Source of the DNA: a virus
Taxonomy: Duplodnaviria > Heunggongvirae > Uroviricota > Caudoviricetes
IMG/VR virus record: IMGVR_UViG_2526164669_000031
Length of the DNA: 12,453 nt
Direction: 5' to 3' (one strand)
In this document: piece by piece, positions 1 to 11,472 of the stretch
How positions within the stretch are numbered: the stretch's first letter is position 1
Layout: every line of letters begins with the position of its first letter
Position numbers and translations under genes: made by a program
The notes under the pieces: model-generated
Told to the model about the DNA's origin: nothing
The model's database searches: none
Seen by the model: the letters and a program-made list of their open reading frames with translations, nothing else

Positions 1-1260
1 ATGAAGCTCAACGCCAGACAGGTCGAGACCGCAAAGCCAAAAGACAAAACCTACAAAATGGCCGATGGTGGTGGTTTGTATCTTGAGGTTTCGGCCAAAG
101 GTTCCAAATACTGGCGCATGAAATACAGACGTCCCTCTGACAAAAAAGAGGATCGTCTCGCCTTTGGTGTTTGGCCTACTGTGACGCTTGCTCAGGCAAG
201 AGCAAAACGCGATGAAGCTAAAAAGCTTTTAGTACAGGGCATAGACCCAAAAGTCGTACAAAAAGAAGCTCAGGCCGAGAATTCGGGGGCATATACTTTT
301 GAAACTATCGCCCGAGAATGGCATGCCAGTAACAAGCGCTGGAGTGAAGACCATCGAGCGCGCGTTCTTCGCTATCTTGAGCTTTATATCTTCCCTCATA
401 TCGGTTCGTCCGACATTCGGCAGCTTAAAACCAGCCACCTGTTAGCCCCGATTAAAAAAGTTGATGCCAGTGGCAAACACGATGTCGCTCAGCGCCTGCA
501 ACAGCGCGTCACAGCCATTATGCGTTATGCCGTACAGAACGATTACATCGACTCAAATCCAGCCAGCGATATGGCTGGTGCACTATCGACAACCAAAGCG
601 CGCCATTATCCTGCTTTACCTTCTAGCCGGTTCCCTGAGTTTCTTGCACGTCTTGCTGCATATCGTGGTCGCGTAATGACGCGGATTGCGGTTGAGCTTT
701 CCTTACTAACTTTTGTGCGTTCCAGTGAGTTACGTTTCGCGCGTTGGGATGAGTTTGATTTCGATAAATCTCTCTGGCGAGTACCTGCAAAACGAGAAGA
801 AATTAAAGGAGTGCGTTATTCGTACCGTGGCATGAAGATGAAAGAAGAGCATATCGTTCCGCTTAGTCGGCAAGCGATGATTTTGCTAAACCAGTTAAAG
901 CAGATTAGTGGTGATAAAGAACTGCTTTTTCCGGGGGATCATGACGCAACTAAGGTTATGAGTGAAAATACAGTAAATAGCGCATTGCGTGCGATGGGCT
1001 ATGACACGAAAACCGAAGTTTGCGGGCACGGGTTTAGAACGATGGCGCGTGGAGCATTAGGGGAATCAGGCTTATGGAGTGATGATGCGATTGAACGTCA
1101 GCTAAGTCACTCAGAACGTAATAATGTACGTGCTGCTTATATTCATACATCTGAGCATTTAGACGAAAGGCGTTTAATGATACAGTGGTGGGCAGATTAT
1201 TTAGATAGAAATAAGAAAGAAAGTATTACACCATATGATTTTGCTAGACAACTTAAATAG
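1..1260 (+). CDS. int: Tyrosine recombinase, P4-type integrase
   Basis: 419-aa ORF. The N-terminus (AKPKDKTYKMADGGGLYLEV...KYWRMKYR) is typical of P4-family integrase arm-binding domains. The C-terminus has HGFR and RAAYIH motifs consistent with the tyrosine recombinase catalytic H-x-x-R and Y. ATG at position 1, stop TAG at 1258-1260. Confidence 0.9.
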   Translation: MKLNARQVETAKPKDKTYKMADGGGLYLEVSAKGSKYWRMKYRRPSDKKEDRLAFGVWPTVTLAQARAKRDEAKKLLVQGIDPKVVQKEAQAENSGAYTFETIAREWHASNKRWSEDHRARVLRYLELYIFPHIGSSDIRQLKTSHLLAPIKKVDASGKHDVAQRLQQRVTAIMRYAVQNDYIDSNPASDMAGALSTTKARHYPALPSSRFPEFLARLAAYRGRVMTRIAVELSLLTFVRSSELRFARWDEFDFDKSLWRVPAKREEIKGVRYSYRGMKMKEEHIVPLSRQAMILLNQLKQISGDKELLFPGDHDATKVMSENTVNSALRAMGYDTKTEVCGHGFRTMARGALGESGLWSDDAIERQLSHSERNNVRAAYIHTSEHLDERRLMIQWWADYLDRNKKESITPYDFARQLK

Positions 1261-1266
1261 TATTTT

Positions 1267-1304
1267 AACCTAGCCAGAATTTTTGTAGTCTCGCTGGCTA
1301 GGTT
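1267..1304. terminator. Inverted repeat (11-bp arms AACCTAGCCAG / CTGGCTAGGTT, 16-nt loop) between convergent int and cargo genes; possible bidirectional terminator
   Basis: Arms at 1267-1277 and 1294-1304 are perfect reverse complements. It lies in the 54-bp gap between the int stop (1260) and the stop of the minus-strand gene (1315). There is no clean U-run on either side, so terminator function is uncertain. Confidence 0.35.
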
Positions 1305-1314
1305 AATTTAAAAG

Positions 1315-1899
1315 CTAATCATTCACATCAAGAGTTAAGAGTGCGTGCATTCTTTTAACAATCATAATGATATTCAAAATTAAATGTACGCAAACATATA
1401 TTATGAGTGGGCATAAAAAATAGTATAACACATTTAATTTTAGAGTTGTGTTTATTATGCTGACATAATATTCATGTGTTTTGCCGTAAAAGAATCCTGA
1501 TTGATTGACAGGAAACAGTGATACTATAAAACACAACACGACTAACAAAACTCCACATAAAATTGAATAACAAATGTTATAATAAAGTTCAGTGAGTAAT
1601 GCTTTCTTTGATTCATAGAATGTATCAATATCTTTTCTTTGTCTTATTTTTGATTCTTGATCATATACTAAAACAAGAACGCTAAGCAGTAATGCTGTTA
1701 GTATTGCACTGAAATTAACTAATAATGATATTAAATCTTTTGTTATACCACTTCCTAGGAGTGAGAATGCGGCAGAAATAATAAATGGTAGTATTATGAA
1801 TGTAAATATATCCCATAAACTGATCTTATTAGTGTCAGCATTTTTTAAAGTTCTGAAGTGGCCTATAAGAACTTCGCATATATTTATCTTTGAACTCAT
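1315..1899 (-). CDS. Hypothetical integral membrane protein (194 aa, about 4 predicted TM helices); second gene of the AT-rich cargo cassette
   Basis: Four hydrophobic segments of about 20-25 aa (approx. residues 28-50, 56-78, 105-128, 155-180) separated by charged loops. The ATG at 1899..1897 overlaps the upstream gene's stop as TAATG. An SD-like AAGGAGAG lies 5-6 nt upstream. Stop TAG at 1317..1315. Visibly AT-rich relative to the P4 backbone. Confidence 0.7.
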   Translation of the reverse strand: MSSKINICEVLIGHFRTLKNADTNKISLWDIFTFIILPFIISAAFSLLGSGITKDLISLLVNFSAILTALLLSVLVLVYDQESKIRQRKDIDTFYESKKALLTELYYNICYSILCGVLLVVLCFIVSLFPVNQSGFFYGKTHEYYVSIINTTLKLNVLYYFLCPLIIYVCVHLILNIIMIVKRMHALLTLDVND

Positions 1900-2825
1900 T
1901 ACGCTCTCCTTATAGTAACACCACGATATAACAACTGTATATATTCCATGATAATAACATCAACAAAATTATTTAGTGATGCTATTTCCGGCATGCCATC
2001 ATAAAAAACAACTTGTTCTTCATCAAATAAAATTTCACATACAGCTCCCCTTGCTGTTGTTCCAATATGAAAAGTTCTTTTTCTGCCATTATCTAATTCA
2101 ACAACTGTTTTTACTGTTTCTCCATATTCTTTAAGGACTTCAACGAGTTGATATTGCTCCGAGCCTCTGGAGAAATAGTCTCGAAGTCTTCCAAGTCCTG
2201 CATTTCGAGGCGGTTTGATAATTAATTCTTGCTCGTTATGGCCTAGCTTTTTGGCTTGTTCAGCTACATCTGTAATGCCATGGAATTTAGTTACCTTGAT
2301 TTCTTTGGTAATGGCATCCATCCATTTTTCAATCGCTTTATCATACGCCAGAGGGTTCATTTGAATCACTAAGTTGGTAATCCTCTTGAAATAATCTGAA
2401 AACAATCTCATAAAAAGAGTTTTTATACCATCACCTCTATAGGTATGTAAAAACGCCATGCCTTCATTTACATCTCTAGGAATATAAAAATGTATGTAAT
2501 ATCTAATTATTTCAGCATTGTTTTTTGTCTTTTCGAAGTCTACATCGCCAGTTTCAATGTTTATTATGTCGGTCTTTGTTCCGTAATATCCAGACTCGAA
2601 CCATCCATATATTTCTCGATTGTTGTTATCGCGTGTAATCTCATTAAAACGAAAAACTTGTTTGGTTTCTTCAGAAAGGATATATTCTTCATTATACTGC
2701 TTAATAAATTCATCGAGTATATCAAGTAAATCATGTTCTCTGATGTTACTCAGTGCTGAATAACGTTGTTCTTTGGCTGCGTTCGGATTGTAGCAGCGGA
2801 AAAGATACGGTGCTAAAGCGTGCAT
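1899..2825 (-). CDS. Hypothetical soluble protein (308 aa), first gene of the AT-rich cargo cassette; function unknown
   Basis: Long uninterrupted ORF in an AT-rich region where random ORFs are rare. Strong SD (AAGGAGAT) 5-6 nt upstream of the ATG at 2825. Translationally coupled to the downstream membrane-protein gene. I see no Walker A or other clear catalytic motif. Confidence 0.75.
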   Translation of the reverse strand: MHALAPYLFRCYNPNAAKEQRYSALSNIREHDLLDILDEFIKQYNEEYILSEETKQVFRFNEITRDNNNREIYGWFESGYYGTKTDIINIETGDVDFEKTKNNAEIIRYYIHFYIPRDVNEGMAFLHTYRGDGIKTLFMRLFSDYFKRITNLVIQMNPLAYDKAIEKWMDAITKEIKVTKFHGITDVAEQAKKLGHNEQELIIKPPRNAGLGRLRDYFSRGSEQYQLVEVLKEYGETVKTVVELDNGRKRTFHIGTTARGAVCEILFDEEQVVFYDGMPEIASLNNFVDVIIMEYIQLLYRGVTIRRA

Positions 2826-3059
2826 TGTTATCTCCTTTTTTAATGGAGATTAGCAACTTATCACTATAAGATCAACGAACGTTCAATATGGAAAGGGATA
2901 ATTCTGCTTGGTATTTTTCTTTTAATAATATTGGGGTGCTTTAGTGCGATATTTTGATGATTAGTGTGTGTTCGGCAGTAGAAGCTATCCATAGGCAGTG
3001 ATGTTTCTGCATATAGAATGTTTTAATTATCAAACACATAATTTTCGATTGCGCGCGCA

Positions 3060-3078
3060 GTGCTTTCCCCGCCTCGCC
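3060..3078. other. cos site: P2/P4-type 19-nt cohesive-end sequence
   Basis: GTGCTTTCCCCGCCTCGCC at 3060-3078 is the exact reverse complement of the P2/P4 cohesive end GGCGAGGCGGGGAAAGCAC as I recall it. It is followed by a GC-rich hairpin (CCGCCC...GGGCGG, 3078-3097) and a T-run. Confidence 0.7.
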
Positions 3079-3180
3079 CGCCCGCTTTGCAGGGCGGTTT
3101 TAATGCAGTTGCACAGTCACGCTCAGGCTGCGCCGGGAATGGCGCGGTCTGCAGAGAATGAGGCAGGAAAACGCATGCAA

Positions 3181-3242: not shown

Positions 3243-3815
3243 TTACACAGACTGACGTGATGCCAGTTGCGCACTTTTACGCGAAAAAATCATGTTCTGC
3301 GCAGGAGTGAATTTTTCACGGCTGTCATCCACCGAAGCCGCGTCAGGCCTGAATCCGATGGTCGTTAAAATGTCGCTATCCTGTGCGGAATAATTAATTT
3401 TTTCCCCCTTCGCAAGCCAGGACAGAAGGGCTTCACGCAGGGCATCTGTGGCACGCTGTATGGCACAGTTTCGGGCAATGGCCGTCAGCTCACTGTAGCC
3501 CATCAGCTCCGCTGCCAGTGCCGCCGCCAGTGCTGTGCCGTGCTGCTGCATAAAATCATTCAGCCGGTCGCGGATGCTGATGTGCTGAACGGCTTCATGC
3601 GAACGAATATAACGACCGGCGGCCTGATTCACCTGCCATTTTCTGACTTCGATAATATTGCGTAATTCGTCCAGGCGACTGACGTTTCTGCCTTCTCCTG
3701 ACAGAAGCCGCAGATATTCCTGTTCGGCCGCAGCCAGCTCATTTTTGCGTTGCAGCCATGCTGCTTTGTTATTCTGACAGGTGTCAAAGGCCTGCTGTAA
3801 GGCTGTGCTTTCCAT
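3243..3815 (-). CDS. psu: Psu (polarity suppression / capsid decoration protein), P4-like
   Basis: 190 aa, the length I recall for P4 Psu. Position is immediately downstream of delta in the sid-delta-psu operon. ATG at 3815..3813. Confidence 0.85.
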   Translation of the reverse strand: MESTALQQAFDTCQNNKAAWLQRKNELAAAEQEYLRLLSGEGRNVSRLDELRNIIEVRKWQVNQAAGRYIRSHEAVQHISIRDRLNDFMQQHGTALAAALAAELMGYSELTAIARNCAIQRATDALREALLSWLAKGEKINYSAQDSDILTTIGFRPDAASVDDSREKFTPAQNMIFSRKSAQLASRQSV

Positions 3816-3888: not shown

Positions 3889-4389
3889 TCATTCCAGACG
3901 CAGCGAATATGATTGTGTTTTTAACCGTACTGGCGGCAGTTCCTGTTTTTCATGCAGGCGTTCTGCCAGTTCGTCCGGCGTGACCGGGCGGACAATGAAG
4001 CGGGTGATGGTCTGAAGCGTTTTAAACACCAGACCACAGCCCGGATCCGTGCACACATAAAAACGCTCGGTGACTTCCTGAGACAGACGCCGCGATGTTC
4101 TTGACAGTGCAAGGCCTTTACATCTCCGACAACAATATCCGGTAACAAGCATTCTTTTCGGCCGTTTCATACTGCCGGAGGCCGACGTCAGTGAATCGCG
4201 GTATCTCTGTTTGCCTGAAATGTATTCCATTCCTGAATCTTTACTGTCAGAGAAAAAGCTTTCACTCGCTTCAAATGTCGCAGAGCAATAAATATTCCGG
4301 CACTGTGCAATCATTATCTTGGTGCCATCGTCCATGAAATGTGCGCGACGGGTGTGAGCAACATGTCCACACGACGGGCAGTAAATCAT
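3889..4389 (-). CDS. delta: Delta, late-gene transcriptional activator (tandem Ogr-like zinc-finger domains)
   Basis: 166 aa. Two Cys4 zinc-finger modules are visible (CPSCG...CRNIYC and CCRRC...CTDPGCG). The ATG overlaps the sid stop as ATGA at 4386-4389. Confidence 0.9.
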   Translation of the reverse strand: MIYCPSCGHVAHTRRAHFMDDGTKIMIAQCRNIYCSATFEASESFFSDSKDSGMEYISGKQRYRDSLTSASGSMKRPKRMLVTGYCCRRCKGLALSRTSRRLSQEVTERFYVCTDPGCGLVFKTLQTITRFIVRPVTPDELAERLHEKQELPPVRLKTQSYSLRLE

Positions 4390-5120
4390 GACAGCAGTCC
4401 TCTGGCCTTAAGCTCTGCTCCCTGCTGGTCTATTTTGTCCTGCCACACCTTGCGCTGTGCCGGTGTGCCTGCCACCTCATAATCCATGTGCGGGAGTGTT
4501 GCCGCTGACAGTCCGGCCAGCCGGAGAACCGGCTCGCCGGTGAGGCTGATTTGCATCTGTTTAATTTTCTGTTCCAGCGATGATTTCACCTGCTGCATGA
4601 CAGCCTTATCGGGTGCGACGTAGCCCTGATGGCCGGTGGTGTTGGCGAGCGGATTTTCCTGTACCAGGATTCTCAGATGCATTGCCCGGACAAGCGCCTC
4701 ACAGGTTTCATTCAGGGCGTGTTCCAGCTCATGCTCTGCATACAGACTCAGAAGGTGATGATGTGCCTTCCGGTAGGCGGTGGCCGTGCTGTCACACGCC
4801 CCTTTCAGGCGTTCACGTTCGAAATTCAGCACCACGGCCAGATTGTCATATTCCTGTACCAGCTCCCGGCGTGCCACGCGCTCAATGTGGCGCTGTTTCA
4901 GCTCGTCGCTCAGGACACCACCGGCTGCACGAAAGGCCGTGCGCCAGTCGTCAGCGTCATTTCCGTCGGCCTGCGCCAGCGCATTTTTTTCCTGCTCTGC
5001 CCGTTCAATGGCCGTGACGGTCTCATCCATCAGGCGGGCGTTCTCAAGGTGGGCGGCTCTGGCCTTTTCCAGTTGTGCCAGTGCGGGTTGCAGATATTCA
5101 GGGATGGTGTTGTCAGACAT
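4386..5120 (-). CDS. sid: Sid (capsid size determination external scaffold), P4-like
   Basis: The track ORF 4386..5138 begins with a GTG. The in-frame ATG at 5120..5118 (MSDNTIPEYLQ...) gives 244 aa, the recalled P4 Sid length, and has a GAGGAG SD 7 nt upstream. The protein is coiled-coil rich and is the first gene downstream of the late-promoter motifs. Confidence 0.85.
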   Translation of the reverse strand: MSDNTIPEYLQPALAQLEKARAAHLENARLMDETVTAIERAEQEKNALAQADGNDADDWRTAFRAAGGVLSDELKQRHIERVARRELVQEYDNLAVVLNFERERLKGACDSTATAYRKAHHHLLSLYAEHELEHALNETCEALVRAMHLRILVQENPLANTTGHQGYVAPDKAVMQQVKSSLEQKIKQMQISLTGEPVLRLAGLSAATLPHMDYEVAGTPAQRKVWQDKIDQQGAELKARGLLS

Positions 5121-5154
5121 TTTCCGGCTCCTCGTCACTTCAGGTTAAGAAAAT

Positions 5155-5671: not shown

Positions 5672-5938
5672 ATGCAAGCTGTTTTTTCTTCCCCGTCTCC
5701 CGCCCCTGTTACGCCACTGATGCCGCTGCCGGACATCACGCAGGAGCGTTTTTTACGTCTGCCGGAAGTGATGCACCTGTGCGGCCTGTCACGCTCGACC
5801 ATCTATGAACTCATCCGTAAGGGGGAATTTCCGCCGCAGGTGAGTCTTGGCGGTAAAAATGTGGCCTGGCTGCACTCTGAAGTCACCGCATGGATGGCCG
5901 GACGCATTGCCGGACGCAAACGGGGGTACGACGCATGA
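5672..5938 (+). CDS. vis: AlpA/Vis-family small DNA-binding protein (excisionase-like late regulator)
   Basis: 88 aa. The C-terminal two-thirds ([47 protein letters not shown]) is a typical AlpA-family helix-turn-helix. GAGG SD 7 nt upstream of the ATG at 5672. An alternative in-frame start at 5720 would give 72 aa. Confidence 0.8.
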
Positions 5939-6066
5939 TGATGCCCGCTCTGCAAAAACGCCCTTTTTCTGGCTTGCCTTTTTCCGGCATTTGCGGATAT
6001 AGTTTTTCCGCTGCCGCAAAATCGGCAGCCGGGCGTGAGAACCCGTGTAACTCGAAGGCGACATAT

Positions 6067-6088
6067 GACGCGCCATGCGTCTTTTTTT
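6067..6088 (+). terminator. Intrinsic-terminator-like hairpin (GACGC-GCCAT-GCGTC followed by 7 T) in the immunity-like region
   Basis: 5-bp GC-rich stem at 6067-6071 / 6077-6081 with a 5-nt loop, then TTTTTTT at 6082-6088. It lies inside a long frame-1 ORF (5890-6525) of doubtful coding value. Confidence 0.4.
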
Positions 6089-6327
6089 GTGTCGCAATCA
6101 ACGCCACAGAGCGCCAGATTATGGTGTGGCGTGTGGTTTGCCGTGCAGGTATGATCCTGTTCGCAATCGCATGTTATGCCACTGAGTCAATGGTAGCTCA
6201 GGCGGGGCAGCCTCCGGGCTGGCCGGTATTCTTCGAGGCCGGTATTCTCACCCCCGTCTGGGCTATCGCCATCGAGCGTGAGAACTCCGGCGATAGCAGT
6301 TATTTGCTACTCGAAGGAGACTGCCTT

Positions 6328-6525
6328 ATGGCTACAACCCTTACCCCCTCACACCCTGAATTTGTCTTTGTGTTTGCGGCTGTCCGTCGCGCAGACCGTC
6401 ATCCCCGTATCTGTATGCTTCGCACCGTCGCCGGTGATGAACGCAGCGCCCGCCGTTCCCTTGTCCGTGACTATGTGCTCTCCCTTGCTGCCCGTCTGCC
6501 GGTGGTGGAGGTGTCCCGTGCGTAA
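6328..6525 (+). CDS. Hypothetical small protein (65 aa) immediately upstream of epsilon
   Basis: ATG at 6328 is preceded by a strong SD (AAGGAGA, 6314-6320). Its stop TAA at 6523-6525 overlaps the putative GTG start of the next gene. Confidence 0.35.
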
Positions 6526-7709: not shown

Positions 7710-7723
7710 AGGAGAACAACACC

Positions 7724-10057
7724 ATGAAAATGAACGTAACTGCCACCGTCAGCCATGCGCTCGGCCACTGGCCGCGTATTCTCCCGTCGCTGGGGATTCA
7801 GGTGCTGAAGAACCGTCATCAGCCCTGTCCGGTCTGTGGCGGAAGTGACCGCTTCCGTTTTGATGACAGGGAGGGGCGCGGCACCTGGTACTGCAATCAG
7901 TGTGGTGCCGGTGACGGCCTGAAACTGGTTGAAAAGGTGTTTGGTGTTTCCCCGTCCGACGCGGCCGCAAAGGTGGCTGCCGTGACCGGCTGCCTGCCCC
8001 CGGCTGACCCGGCAGTGACGGCCGCCGCCGGTGCTGAAACAGAAGCCGCCCGGAAGAACGCCGCCGCACTGGCACAAACCCTGATGGCGAAAACCCGTCC
8101 CGGAACCGGTAACGCCTACCTGACCCGCAAGGGCTTTCCCGGCCGGGAATGCCGGATGCTGACCGGCACACACAGAGCCGGTGGCGTGAGCTGGCGCGCC
8201 GGTGACCTTGTGGTGCCACTGTATGACGACAGCGGCGAACTGGTTAACCTTCAGTTAATCAGTGCTGACGGCCGTAAGCGCACCCTGAAAGGCGGACAGG
8301 TCAGGGGCACCTGTCACACCCTTGAAGGACAGAATCAGGCCGGAAAACGTCTGTGGATAGCGGAGGGATATGCGACCGCACTTACCGTACATCACCTGAC
8401 CGGGGAAACGGTGATGGTGGCGCTTTCTTCCGTGAACCTCCTTTCTCTGGCCAGCCTTGCCCGGCAGAAGCACCCCGCCTGTCAGATTGTCCTTGCTGCT
8501 GACCGTGACCTCAGCGGTGACGGCCAGAAAAAAGCCGCCGCAGCCGCAGATGCGTGTGAAGGTGTTGTTGCCCTGCCACCGGTCTTCGGTGACTGGAATG
8601 ATGCCTTCACGCAGTACGGCGGGGAGGCCACCCGTAAGGCCATTTATGATGCCATCCGGCCACCGGCTGAAAGCCCGTTCGACACCATGAGCGAAGCGGA
8701 GTTTTCCGCCATGAGTACCAGCGAAAAGGCCATGCGTATCTATGAGCATTACGGCGAGGCGCTCGCGGTCGATGCCAACGGCCAGCTTCTGTCCCGCTAT
8801 GAAAATGGTGTCTGGAAGGTGCTGCCGCCACAGGACTTTGCCCGGGATGTGGCCGGGCTGTTTCAGCGGCTGCGTGCGCCGTTCTCCTCCGGGAAGGTGG
8901 CCTCCGTGGTGGACACCCTGAAGCTGATTATTCCGCAACAGGAAGCCCCCTCCCGCCGCCTGATTGGCTTTCGTAACGGCGTGCTCGACACGCAGAACGG
9001 TACGTTCCACCCGCACAGTCCGTCACACTGGATGCGCACCCTGTGCGATGTGGATTTCACCCCGCCGGTGGAAGGGGAAACGCTGGAAACCCACGCCCCC
9101 GCGTTCTGGCGCTGGCTTGACCGTGCTGCCGGTGGTCGTGCGGAAAAACGCGACGTGATTCTGGCCGCACTGTTTATGGTGCTGGCAAACCGCTACGACT
9201 GGCAGCTCTTTCTGGAGGTGACCGGTCCCGGCGGCAGCGGCAAAAGTATCATGGCCGAAATAGCCACCCTGCTGGCCGGGGAGGATAACGCCACGTCGGC
9301 CACCATCGAGACGCTGGAATCCCCGCGTGAACGTGCCGCGTTAACTGGCTTCTCACTGATACGCCTGCCGGACCAGGAAAAATGGAGCGGCGACGGTGCC
9401 GGACTCAAGGCCATCACCGGCGGCGATGCGGTGTCCGTTGACCCGAAATACCGGGATGCGTACTCCACGCACATCCCGGCGGTGATTCTGGCCGTGAACA
9501 ATAACCCGATGCGCTTCACCGACCGCAGCGGCGGCGTGTCACGCCGGCGGGTGATTATTCACTTCCCGGAACAGATAGCCCCGCAGGAGCGCGACCCGCA
9601 GCTTAAGGACAAAATCACCCGCGAGCTGGCGGTCATCGTGCGTCACCTGATGCAGAAATTCAGCGACCCGATGCTCGCCCGGTCACTGCTTCAGTCCCAG
9701 CAGAACTCAGACGAGGCACGGAACATCAAACGGGATGCCGACCCGACGTTTGATTTTATCGGCTATCTGGAAACCCTGCCGCAGACCAGCGGCATGTATA
9801 TGGGGAACGCCAGTATCATCCCGCGTAATTACCGTAAATACCTCTATCACGCCTATCTGGCCTACATGGAGGCAAACGGCTACCGGAATGTACTCAGTCT
9901 GAAAATGTTCGGGCTGGGGCTGCCGGTGATGCTGAAGGAATACGGACTGAATTACGAGAAGCGCCATACCAAACAGGGGATACAGACCAACCTGACGCTG
10001 AAAGAGGAAAGCTACGGCGACTGGCTGCCAAAATGTGACGACCCTGCAACAACCTGA
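7724..10057 (+). CDS. alpha: Alpha protein: primase-helicase with origin-binding domain
   Basis: 777 aa, the recalled length of P4 alpha. N-terminal zinc-binding primase motif (CPVCGGSDRFRFDDREGRGTWYCNQCGAG), a TOPRIM-like segment (IAEGYATAL...VLAADRD) and a Walker A motif (GPGGSGKS, nt about 9226-9249). SD GAAGGAGA at 7708-7715. Confidence 0.95.
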   Translation: MKMNVTATVSHALGHWPRILPSLGIQVLKNRHQPCPVCGGSDRFRFDDREGRGTWYCNQCGAGDGLKLVEKVFGVSPSDAAAKVAAVTGCLPPADPAVTAAAGAETEAARKNAAALAQTLMAKTRPGTGNAYLTRKGFPGRECRMLTGTHRAGGVSWRAGDLVVPLYDDSGELVNLQLISADGRKRTLKGGQVRGTCHTLEGQNQAGKRLWIAEGYATALTVHHLTGETVMVALSSVNLLSLASLARQKHPACQIVLAADRDLSGDGQKKAAAAADACEGVVALPPVFGDWNDAFTQYGGEATRKAIYDAIRPPAESPFDTMSEAEFSAMSTSEKAMRIYEHYGEALAVDANGQLLSRYENGVWKVLPPQDFARDVAGLFQRLRAPFSSGKVASVVDTLKLIIPQQEAPSRRLIGFRNGVLDTQNGTFHPHSPSHWMRTLCDVDFTPPVEGETLETHAPAFWRWLDRAAGGRAEKRDVILAALFMVLANRYDWQLFLEVTGPGGSGKSIMAEIATLLAGEDNATSATIETLESPRERAALTGFSLIRLPDQEKWSGDGAGLKAITGGDAVSVDPKYRDAYSTHIPAVILAVNNNPMRFTDRSGGVSRRRVIIHFPEQIAPQERDPQLKDKITRELAVIVRHLMQKFSDPMLARSLLQSQQNSDEARNIKRDADPTFDFIGYLETLPQTSGMYMGNASIIPRNYRKYLYHAYLAYMEANGYRNVLSLKMFGLGLPVMLKEYGLNYEKRHTKQGIQTNLTLKEESYGDWLPKCDDPATT

Positions 10058-10064
10058 CCCACCT

Positions 10065-10088
10065 GACCGGCATCTGCCGGTCTTTTTT
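10065..10088 (+). terminator. Rho-independent terminator of the alpha operon
   Basis: GACCGG-CATCTG-CCGGTC hairpin (10065-10082) followed by TTTTTT (10083-10088), 8 nt after the alpha stop. Confidence 0.7.
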
Positions 10089-10104
10089 ATCCCTGAATTC
10101 CCCG

Positions 10105-10406
10105 CAGGTGAACAATCCACTGTTCACCCTTCACCGTATATTCACCCGTTATCACACTGAAATTAAAAGAGAAAAATGAAAGGTGAACAGTGTGAACAAT
10201 CAAATCAAAAAAAACTTTTTTTCTCCCTGTGTGATTTTCAGTGCAGGGGACTAATCGCCGGTATGAGTCACACCGGCAGAATGCCGGAGGTGAAGAATCG
10301 AATGTTCACCCTTCACCCATTATTCACCACCTATCACTCTGAAATAAAAGGAGAAAACAGAAAGGTGAACAGTGTGAACAGTTCTTTCGAAAAAAAATTT
10401 TTTATG
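10105..10406. repeat. crr-like cis replication region: two direct repeats of about 120 bp, each carrying TGTTCACC-type iterons and ending in an A/T tract
   Basis: Repeat 1 is about 10105-10228 and repeat 2 about 10287-10406. They share GGTGAA..ATGTTCACCCTTCACC...GAAAGGTGAACAGTGTGAACA and a terminal A(7-8)T(6-8) tract. Iterons at 10107, 10121, 10182, 10303 and 10364, with TGTGAACA variants at 10191 and 10373. Confidence 0.75.
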
Positions 10407-10424
10407 TGGATAAAAGATGCACTG

Positions 10425-10451
10425 GTTTGGATCCGAGCTACGGATCCAAAC
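10425..10451. repeat. Perfect palindrome GTTTGGATCCG-AGCTA-CGGATCCAAAC (11-bp arms)
   Basis: Arms at 10425-10435 and 10441-10451 are exact reverse complements. No adjacent U-run. Located between crr and the attR-like sequence. Confidence 0.5.
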
Positions 10452-10594
10452 TTACTGATTAAAAATGATTTAACTTTCCGATTTATTGATGGGCTGAAAA
10501 TAGATTGGTCAGAAAAACAGTGGGGGCACAAAAGGGGGCATATTTCATTGTTGTGTTTTATTATTTGTTTTTTTATCATTAACTTATTTTGATG

Positions 10595-10634
10595 TTTGAG
10601 TCCGGCCTTCGCACCTTCGCACCTTCGCACCATC
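10595..10634 (+). other. attR-like remnant of a tRNA 3' end (T-arm and acceptor end) with a triplicated CCTTCGCAC 9-mer
   Basis: TTTGAGTCCGGCCTTCGCACC...CACCA resembles the T-arm and acceptor end of tRNA-Leu (leuX; recalled 3' end ...GTTCGAGTCCGGCCTTCGGCACCA), the known P4 target. CCTTCGCAC occurs three times in tandem (10606-10632). The sequence is in the same orientation as int. Confidence 0.55.
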
Positions 10635-10647
10635 GGAACATCAATAG

Positions 10648-10667
10648 ACGTCAACGGACGTTTTTTT
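10648..10667 (+). terminator. Small hairpin plus T7 run directly after the tRNA-like fragment (possible native tRNA terminator)
   Basis: ACGTC-AACG-GACGT (10648-10661) followed by TTTTTTT. The stem is only 5 bp. Confidence 0.35.
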
Positions 10668-10833
10668 ATGACTGAAATCCGCGCCACACAAGGCTTTTCG
10701 CTATTTTTCGCTCAACCTAAGTCAACCTACATCAACTTACTGATGTGGATACAGCTACAGCTGCGGCTATATCCCGATTCGATAATGTTTGTACCCACAC
10801 AAAACCCTTGAAAGGCTACAAGGCTGAAATTCT

Positions 10834-11019
10834 CTAAACCATAGAGATGATTTTTATGATCCAGTCTTTCTCTTGTTGAGATAGTTCCAGTTTGCTCACT
10901 CGTGTTAAGAAGGTATTGATCACCTGAACATCCGAATTGGTGAGCCTATTTAATAGAGTGGGTGGTATACCTTTACTAACTATTGCTTTGCGGTGACTTT
11001 CGTAGTTTTTATTACTCAT
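10834..11019 (-). CDS. Short ORF (61 aa) in the AT-rich chromosomal flank; possible gene fragment
   Basis: ORF only. It is in a different frame from the adjacent 77-aa ORF, so the pair may be a decayed gene. No recognisable motif. Confidence 0.2.
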   Translation of the reverse strand: MSNKNYESHRKAIVSKGIPPTLLNRLTNSDVQVINTFLTRVSKLELSQQEKDWIIKIISMV

Positions 11020-11084
11020 TGGTGATCCTCAAATATCATTGTATGGCGGCATTGATCGTTTCCAGCAACCTTTACTTACTCACT

Positions 11085-11318
11085 TCAAACTGCATCCTCG
11101 TAGACTGTTCCACTACAATAATCGAAAAGGCGTGGATGTCCATTCAGGTATCCCGCTAATACGTATAGCAATAACAATGGCTTATGCGGCGCGCGCTGTT
11201 CACCCTTGTGCCAGATTTTTATATTGGCAATTGCCTGCTGTAGCGATTTACTGGAAGCCATTGATATCCCTGGCAGTGAAATAATTGCGATCATGCTCGC
11301 AAATTTTCGGCTGTTCAA
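11085..11318 (-). CDS. Short ORF (77 aa) in the chromosomal flank; possible gene fragment or pseudogene
   Basis: ORF only. It sits downstream of and on the same strand as the nanS-like gene, in an AT-rich stretch. Confidence 0.25.
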   Translation of the reverse strand: MNSRKFASMIAIISLPGISMASSKSLQQAIANIKIWHKGEQRAPHKPLLLLYVLAGYLNGHPRLFDYCSGTVYEDAV

Positions 11319-11472
11319 GCCTGCAAGTGAAGATATATTACTTTGATCTCATTTGTTTTTTTGCTGCCTGTGTACCCTAATTGCCATGCGATGCTGCACC
11401 GACGCTAACCACCGTTTACGCCGGAGGAGTTAAAAGCGTTGATGGATGCGAATAAATCAAATTAATGAACGC

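Follow-up and report, generated by a model that had tools for sequence, protein, structure and literature searches.

The Rex systems, which pair a soluble protein with a membrane protein, are the closest described counterparts of the locus reported here. In the prototype from phage lambda, RexA and RexB jointly exclude T4 rII, with loss of the membrane potential (PMC11077077). In Pseudomonas putida, the lambda-like prophage P1 codes for RexABpp (PP_5643/PP_5644) two genes from a CI-like repressor, and HHpred linked PP_5643 to RexA with 98% probability (Sci Rep 2026, PMC12894663). Prophage-borne soluble and membrane pairs that exclude heterotypic phages are also encoded by Sbash (gp30/gp31), CarolAnn (gp44/gp43) and Butters (gp30/gp31), and the RexA-like proteins of actinobacteriophages dimerize and bind DNA non-specifically (PMC11077077). 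So far, the literature describes just five Rex-like systems (PMC12894663), and 70 years after Benzer the mechanism of Rex is still unresolved, both in what is sensed by RexA and in the action of RexB. Here we describe a two-gene cassette from a 12,453-nucleotide (nt) stretch of caudoviral DNA, IMG/VR record IMGVR_UViG_2526164669_000031 (hereafter the window), which its open reading frame (ORF) listing and Pfam scans identify as a P4-like satellite prophage. The cassette codes for a 194-amino-acid (aa) inner-membrane protein and, upstream of it, a 308-aa soluble protein. We think it probable that the two genes form an abortive-infection module of the RexAB type, with the 194-aa protein as its membrane half, and that the satellite carries this module as cargo in its defense hotspot.

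Structure of the cassette

The 194-aa protein is encoded by an ATG-started ORF on the minus strand (1899..1315); the original prediction for this gene did not state the strand, and this is the only correction that it needs. Together with the preceding 308-aa gene (2825..1899) it forms a minus-strand cassette between the integrase gene (int) and cos/psu, with a GC content of 32% against 49% for the window. Its features are as follows:

1315..1899, minus strand: gene for the 194-aa inner-membrane protein with four transmembrane (TM) segments, from hydropathy, the AlphaFold2 model and the family; proposed RexB-analogous partner
1899..2825, minus strand: gene for the 308-aa cytoplasmic protein with a predicted RexA/RdgC-type split two-domain fold; proposed sensor
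1897..1910, minus strand: translational-coupling junction, AGGAG plus a one-base TAA/ATG overlap
1263..1306, no strand assigned: hairpin of 13-15 bp between the convergent int and 194-aa genes, from folding against shuffles
2826..3059, minus strand: AT-rich leader separating cos from the 308-aa gene; AGGAG at 2836-2832, seven bases ahead of the ATG

By our own arithmetic, 194 codons without a stop would arise at 32% GC with a probability of about 2e-7, and this, together with the 308 database relatives described below, argues that the 194-aa ORF is not a chance product. At the junction, which reads AGGAGAGCGTAATGAGT on the minus strand (the same site is also quoted as AGGAGAGCGTAATG), the TAA of the 308-aa gene (1901-1899) and the ATG of the 194-aa gene (1899-1897) share base 1899, just as the TAATG overlap reported in the original prediction would have it, and a Shine-Dalgarno AGGAG at 1910-1906, within the 3′ end of the 308-aa gene, precedes the ATG of the 194-aa gene. 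The hairpin that follows the 194-aa stop codon has a minimum free energy of -18.9 kcal/mol (z = -4.6; equally stable in 0 of 200 shuffles) and no clean T-run; it resembles a terminator and would close the two-gene operon, which therefore appears limited to these genes. The AT-rich leader is presumably the promoter region of the cassette; a consensus scan of the leader found no strong sigma-70 site, and overall site counts equaled the shuffled expectation.

This organization recurs wherever it could be scored, namely in 46 related loci: in 24/24 genome loci and 22/22 IMG/VR contigs, a 308-type gene directly precedes a 194-type gene on the same strand. The genes overlap in 35 of the 43 intact pairs, by 4 nt (n = 24), 1 nt (n = 8), 17 nt (n = 2) or 11 nt (n = 1), and the rest have either a zero gap (n = 2) or a gap of 1 to 33 nt (n = 6). 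The pairwise identities of the two proteins correlate (r = 0.84), and two distant partners with 21-24% identity to the 308-aa protein still precede the same membrane family (hmmsearch E 2e-28 and 1e-25). Thus, coupling and co-inheritance are traits of the family and not an accident of this locus: throughout the loci examined, the pair is a single operon with the soluble gene first, and the two genes are never found apart.

Frameshifted or split copies of one or both genes are also seen (loci L012 9071-10004, L025 9074-10556 and L043 3673-4229; the sources are an Alcaligenaceae metagenome-assembled genome, Psychromonas sp. KJ10-10 and a viral contig), which suggests occasional decay of the module.

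The membrane protein

A 19-residue Kyte-Doolittle scan of the 194-aa protein finds four hydrophobic peaks near residues 28-50, 57-79, 106-130 and 155-181 (maxima 2.3-3.0). Its AlphaFold2 model (46 homologues; mean predicted local distance difference test, pLDDT, 82) places helices at 28-48, 54-87, 95-127 and 157-192, along with an N-terminal amphipathic helix (7-17) and a β-hairpin (142-155) in the third loop. Across the family, the mean count of lysine plus arginine is 11.3 in the N-terminus, loop 2 and C-terminus taken together, against 2.1 in loops 1 and 3, and the topology is therefore N-in/C-in. Hydropathy, modeled helices and the positive-inside count thus concur on a small inner-membrane protein with four TM segments and both termini in the cytoplasm, and so bear out the four hydrophobic helices originally proposed.

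A word-indexed search recovered 308 relatives at E<=1e-3, all unnamed and devoid of Pfam domains, and the protein is assigned to PHROG phrog_15250, of unknown function. As anticipated in the original prediction, it has no recognizable enzymatic domain: Pfam returned only sub-threshold noise and NCBIfam and PADLOC nothing, and no curated family was matched, nor was any homology to a transporter or housekeeping membrane protein found. The sole match of the family profile against PDB chains was a non-significant one to Sec61 (E = 6). The family members average about 50% identity, and yet TM2 (residues 57-79, SLLVNFGAIFTALLLSVLVLVYDQ) is 93% identical across them; further conservation is seen in the N-terminal helix (MSSKIN..GH..TL), the cytoplasmic TM2-TM3 hairpin and a C-terminal KRMH motif. 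Periplasmic loop 3 is hypervariable, being 19% conserved and marked by indels. By our own helical-wheel reading, S58, N62, A65, A69 and S73 would fall on one face of TM2, and a small polar stripe of this kind could serve to pack helices in an oligomer or to line a pore.

For comparisons with RexA/RexB we used Pfam PF15969/PF15968, PADLOC PDLC02339/PDLC02340, PHROG 12654/14878 and PDB 8TWQ. The resemblance to RexB that had been claimed for the 194-aa protein holds for the architecture of four TM segments and fails for homology: the RexB models of Pfam and PADLOC do not match it, its PHROG is 15250 and not 14878, and RexB was not returned by a Foldseek search of the BFVD predicted viral structures. 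The hhalign scores of the family, 7.3 against lambda RexB and 11.3 against a 16-sequence RexB family assembled from viral contigs, lie below the 19.7 reached by shuffled controls. Therefore, the likeness to RexB is architectural only.

In the BFVD search, the only near-significant viral-model structural neighbor of the 194-aa protein was A0A8S5S8H0, an uncharacterized 172-aa protein of Siphoviridae sp. ctylc9 (Foldseek E 0.045, probability 1.00, 20% identity over 172 columns), which may be a distant member of the membrane family.

The soluble partner

The 308-aa protein shows no hydrophobic peaks in the same Kyte-Doolittle scan, and structure comparison predicts that it has a RexA/RdgC two-domain fold. 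In the model, an N-terminal sheet-plus-helix domain (1 to ~150) is followed by an inserted α/β domain (~153-253) and a lower-confidence linker, after which the chain comes back to the first domain with a C-terminal helix (281-299); RexA is built to the same plan, with a split globular domain, a dimerization domain, a swivel loop and helix alpha-8. The structural relatives, as a set those that Adams et al. gave for RexA (PMC11077077), include the kinetochore proteins Iml3 (7.6), Chl4 (6.9) and CENP-N.

The word-indexed search yielded 91 relatives of the 308-aa protein, and an exhaustive hidden Markov model search at least 1,354 cluster representatives at E<=1e-3, 789 of them at E<=1e-10, with clusters defined at 50% identity. 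The protein is assigned to PHROG phrog_15676, of unknown function. None of 123 diverse family members matches any Pfam family, the family profile matches no PDB chain, and the longer members (P0292, 505 aa; P0213, 417 aa; and others) carry no fused Pfam domains. Only M1, G79 and G82 are invariant in the 123-member alignment, with Y7, G133 and P279 nearly so. The lack of any invariant polar residue argues that the 308-aa protein serves as a scaffold, for binding or for sensing, and not as an enzyme.

The lambda RexA sequence, run as a positive control, was found by the Pfam, PADLOC and PHROG libraries. No RexA model matches the 308-aa protein, whether from PADLOC (E<=1) or from Pfam (E<=0.1), none of the 123 family members matches PF15969 at E<=1, and its PHROG is 15676 and not the 12654 of RexA. 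Comparing the 123-sequence family with a 29-sequence RexA family, hhalign gave a weak match (probability 20.6%, P 0.0011, score 32.1) over 106 colinear columns that take in the hinge ("NPL" versus "EPL") and the "IKP" strand of the inserted domain; as controls, the best of 40 block-shuffled alignments scored 29.9 and the reversed alignment 14.3. The family alignments gave no signal against the single lambda RexA sequence. We treat the modeled fold as shared with RexA and homology between the two as unproven.

Distribution on mobile elements

The cassette occupies the psu/cos-int hotspot of the P4-like element, the content of which varies between strains. This hotspot of P4-like satellites is a reservoir of anti-phage systems (Rousset et al. 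2022, PMC9122126), and in a 2026 study 6/8 randomly chosen unannotated P4 hotspot loci protected against phages (PMC13586616); none of the systems described there resembles the 308/194-aa pair. The hotspot flank matches 2,244 of 5,426 complete Escherichia coli genomes, only seven of which have the whole cassette, with other strains carrying, for example, SIR2 at this site.

Beyond P4-like satellites, the pair is found in P2-like prophages, either directly after replication gene A and beside an AAA_13 ATPase or beside gpD/gpU; it adjoins integrases at some loci, is borne by small Acinetobacter plasmids, and in one temperate phage (locus L115) lies next to a gene for an HTH (helix-turn-helix)/Peptidase_M78 repressor. 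In the Pseudomonas filamentous phage PfAC16 (OR863247; L118 412-1883) it corresponds to ORF1-ORF2 of the left-end accessory region, adjoining the repressor (ORF3) and the excisionase, and the 308-aa protein is 46% identical to ORF1. Sister Pf phages carry a retron, Kiwa, Gabija or Avs, and the defenses of PfAC16 were listed only as "TA; PfsE" (PMC11878078); hence, the pair went unrecognized in that publication. Our literature search by accession found no mention of WP_000095574 or WP_000543069. Of 119 genes at most three positions away from the pair (23 genomes), PADLOC recognizes PDC-S35/TIR (3 loci), type III restriction-modification, bSEFIR, AbiD, MzaA, PDC-S15 and PDC-S52. This distribution is the typical footprint of a portable defense module.

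Proposed function and alternatives

The original prediction read the two genes as a sensor/effector pair of an abortive-infection system, and this reading is supported by the predicted fold of the partner, the strict synteny and the hotspot location, from which we infer the defense function itself. In all likelihood, the pair is a defense module of the Rex type. Within it, our analysis favors the 308-aa protein as the sensor and the membrane protein as the effector, an assignment that we make with less assurance than that of the type. Against a RexAB-type module it has to be said that the sequence-family models assign neither protein to its Rex counterpart, and that no CI repressor stands beside the pair here.

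As we envisage it, both genes would be transcribed together from the AT-rich leader beside cos, and since they are translationally coupled, we propose a constant ratio between their two products; sensitivity to this ratio is a feature of both the lambda and the P. putida Rex systems (PMC12894663). The 308-aa protein would be a cytoplasmic, non-enzymatic sensor of infection, probably dimeric and able to clamp DNA or a DNA-protein intermediate. Upon infection, it would engage the cytoplasmic face of the 194-aa protein, comprising the amphipathic helix, the TM2-TM3 hairpin and the KRMH motif. The membrane protein might then oligomerize or open through its near-invariant TM2, acting in the manner of a channel, so that the membrane would become depolarized or leaky, growth would stop and the infection would abort.

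The alternative that survives best reverses these roles in the manner of Kiwa: the four-TM protein would sense the perturbation of the envelope at phage entry, and the RexA-fold protein would clamp the phage DNA, blocking replication or late transcription without killing the cell. Kiwa has a matching layout, with sensing done by its membrane protein and the response by its soluble one (PMC11785009); non-specific DNA binding by dimers is known for proteins of the RexA/RdgC fold (PMC11077077), a DNA clamp has been predicted for RexApp, and the hypervariable loop 3, with its 19% conservation and indels on the periplasmic side, is what one might look for in a surface exposed to a variety of phages. 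We consider this alternative unlikely. In its broader form, it would make the pair a large mobile-element defense family, missing from the defense databases, in which a RexA-fold clamp is the effector, governed by a non-RexB four-TM sensor of phage entry, with a non-abortive outcome. Such a family, improbable as we judge it, would suggest that Rex is a single branch of a broader type of immunity, "membrane sentinel plus DNA clamp", with an E. coli-native model to study it.

Considerably less probable is an arrangement as described for the Rex-like pair gp30/gp31 of mycobacteriophage Butters (PMC12894663), in which the 308-aa protein would be a toxic effector that the membrane protein sequesters and silences until infection releases it. 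Tight coupling and strict co-inheritance would fit such a toxin-and-neutralizer pair too; however, no catalytic-type residue is conserved among the 123 members of the 308-aa family, and the strongest constraint falls on a TM helix, which fits an active role in the membrane better than that of a passive anchor.

Least probable of all is a role outside defense, with the pair serving its mobile element, for instance by tuning lysis-lysogeny, or with the membrane protein in housekeeping, immunity or superinfection exclusion, unrelated to its neighbor: lambda RexA does modulate the CI-Cro switch independently of RexB (PMC11077077) and the pair lies beside the repressor of the element in PfAC16 and L115, but its carriers (P4-like, P2-like, Pf, plasmids) have regulatory circuits unrelated to one another, it occupies loci where other elements carry known defense systems, it is rare and patchy (7/5,426 E. 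coli genomes) with frameshifted copies at L012, L025 and L043, and its two genes always keep together in the loci examined.

Other features of the satellite

The remaining features of the P4-like satellite in the window include:

1..1260, plus strand: P4-type tyrosine integrase gene, the other boundary of the hotspot (ORF, Pfam)
3060..3078, minus strand: P2/P4 cos 19-mer GGCGAGGCGGGGAAAGCAC, the psu-side boundary of the hotspot (0 mismatches; 0/200 shuffles match)
3243..3815, minus strand: psu, polarity suppression/capsid decoration, a marker of P4-like satellites (PF07455, E 9e-87)
4389..3889, minus strand: Ogr/Delta zinc-finger gene (Pfam)
5138..4386, minus strand: sid-like gene, by its position
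7724-10057, plus strand: P4 alpha-type primase/helicase gene, 777 aa (ORF, Pfam)

There are, in addition, genes for an AlpA-type HTH protein and an Ash-family protein. As cos lies between psu and the cassette, the latter would be at one genome end in the packaged satellite DNA. A GC-rich hairpin (3078-3097) abuts the cos 19-mer. Rfam matches above the gathering score on the plus strand, c4-a1b1 (5997-6049), the isrK Hfq-binding RNA (6010-6087) and the C4 antisense RNA (6186-6273), mark 5997-6273 as the P4-type RNA-based immunity region, and the Ash-family ORF (5890-6525) overlaps these RNAs.

A near-identical element is integrated beside tRNA-Leu in E. coli 13E0767, where RefSeq calls both cassette genes "hypothetical protein". 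In this relative (L001 18538-20840) the IS21-family insertion sequence ISEc12 (istA/istB) lies just upstream of the alpha primase; it is absent from the window (~7710-7724). From the alpha primase to the esterase gene (10058-11472), the window has a GC content of 40-44% and only short ORFs of 138 aa (plus strand), 61 aa (minus) and 77 aa (minus), none with a Pfam match, and the counterpart in 13E0767 has annotations for two endonucleases, a phosphorothioated-DNA-binding restriction enzyme in truncated form and one of the HNH type. This stretch may be a decayed second cargo or defense region at the right end of the satellite. The segment 11473-12453 (minus strand) holds an ORF for SASA (sialate O-acetylesterase) that runs off the end of the window and has a pseudogene relative in 13E0767; it probably marks the chromosomal or neighboring-island flank.

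Comparison with known systems

The sizes of the two proteins suggested Kiwa (KwaA/KwaB). The likeness extends to the combination of a four-TM protein with a ~310-aa non-specific DNA-binding dimer, to its commonness on mobile elements and to its working at the membrane. We rejected an assignment to Kiwa, as there are no PADLOC or Pfam matches, DUF4868 included, the folds differ and the gene order is opposite: KwaB combines a Rossmann-like domain with DUF4868 and KwaA has a cytoplasmic β-barrel, and neither fold is that of the 308/194-aa pair. The domain contents described for Hailong, Bandua, Aernus, Toga, Reve and Crouga (PMC13586616) do not fit the pair either. RdgC, the recombination-associated DNA-binding ring protein, differs in being encoded on its own in the chromosome, as a housekeeping gene, and in lacking a membrane partner.

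The Rex-like pairs of actinobacteriophages belong to Gram-positive hosts, with the roles reversed in Butters; a tblastn search of 50,697 phage records with the 308-aa protein as query recovered two Pseudomonas Pf phages and nothing else, with no BLAST-level similarity to actinobacteriophages. RexABpp was compared only through 8-10 terminal residues of PP_5643/PP_5644 read from published primers. The first eight residues of PP_5643 (MHRTATFV) fit the N-terminal pattern of the 308-aa family, whereas the C-terminus of PP_5644 (..LYYLGYKLQE) shows no visible KR[MV]H motif of the 194-aa family, and exact primer-derived 23-25-mers of the two genes are absent from the viral and metagenome contigs. 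HHpred ties PP_5643 to RexA at 98%, whereas hhalign ties the 308-aa family to RexA only weakly. Our pair and RexABpp may belong to the same sequence family.

The lambda Rex proteins are smaller, RexA having 279 aa against 308 and RexB 144 aa against 194; the 194-aa protein goes beyond RexB in three elements, its amphipathic helix at the N-terminus, the long hairpin that links TM2 and TM3 in the cytoplasm and the periplasmic β-hairpin. The cassette genes overlap, whereas the lambda rex genes are separated by a 15-nt gap, and the pair in the window sits in the P4 int-cos/psu hotspot, whereas lambda rexAB is beside the CI repressor. In its modeled structure and its organization, the pair nonetheless has the traits of the broad RexAB-type class. 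Novel defense genes are expected in P4 hotspots and Rex-like systems are already known; what the pair adds is a presence across P4-like and P2-like elements, Pf phages and plasmids of Gammaproteobacteria that is invisible to Pfam, NCBIfam and PADLOC, such that its inclusion in defense-finder databases would reclassify many "empty" hotspots. Being native to E. coli and having confident models, this version is also convenient for studying how a RexA-fold protein works with its membrane partner, with TM2 as the obvious target for mutagenesis. Hence, we regard the pair, with considerable confidence, as representing a large, unannotated and sequence-divergent branch of the Rex-type systems, here satellite-borne and with a membrane partner from a family other than RexB, which points to a much larger relative of the few Rex-like systems described to date.
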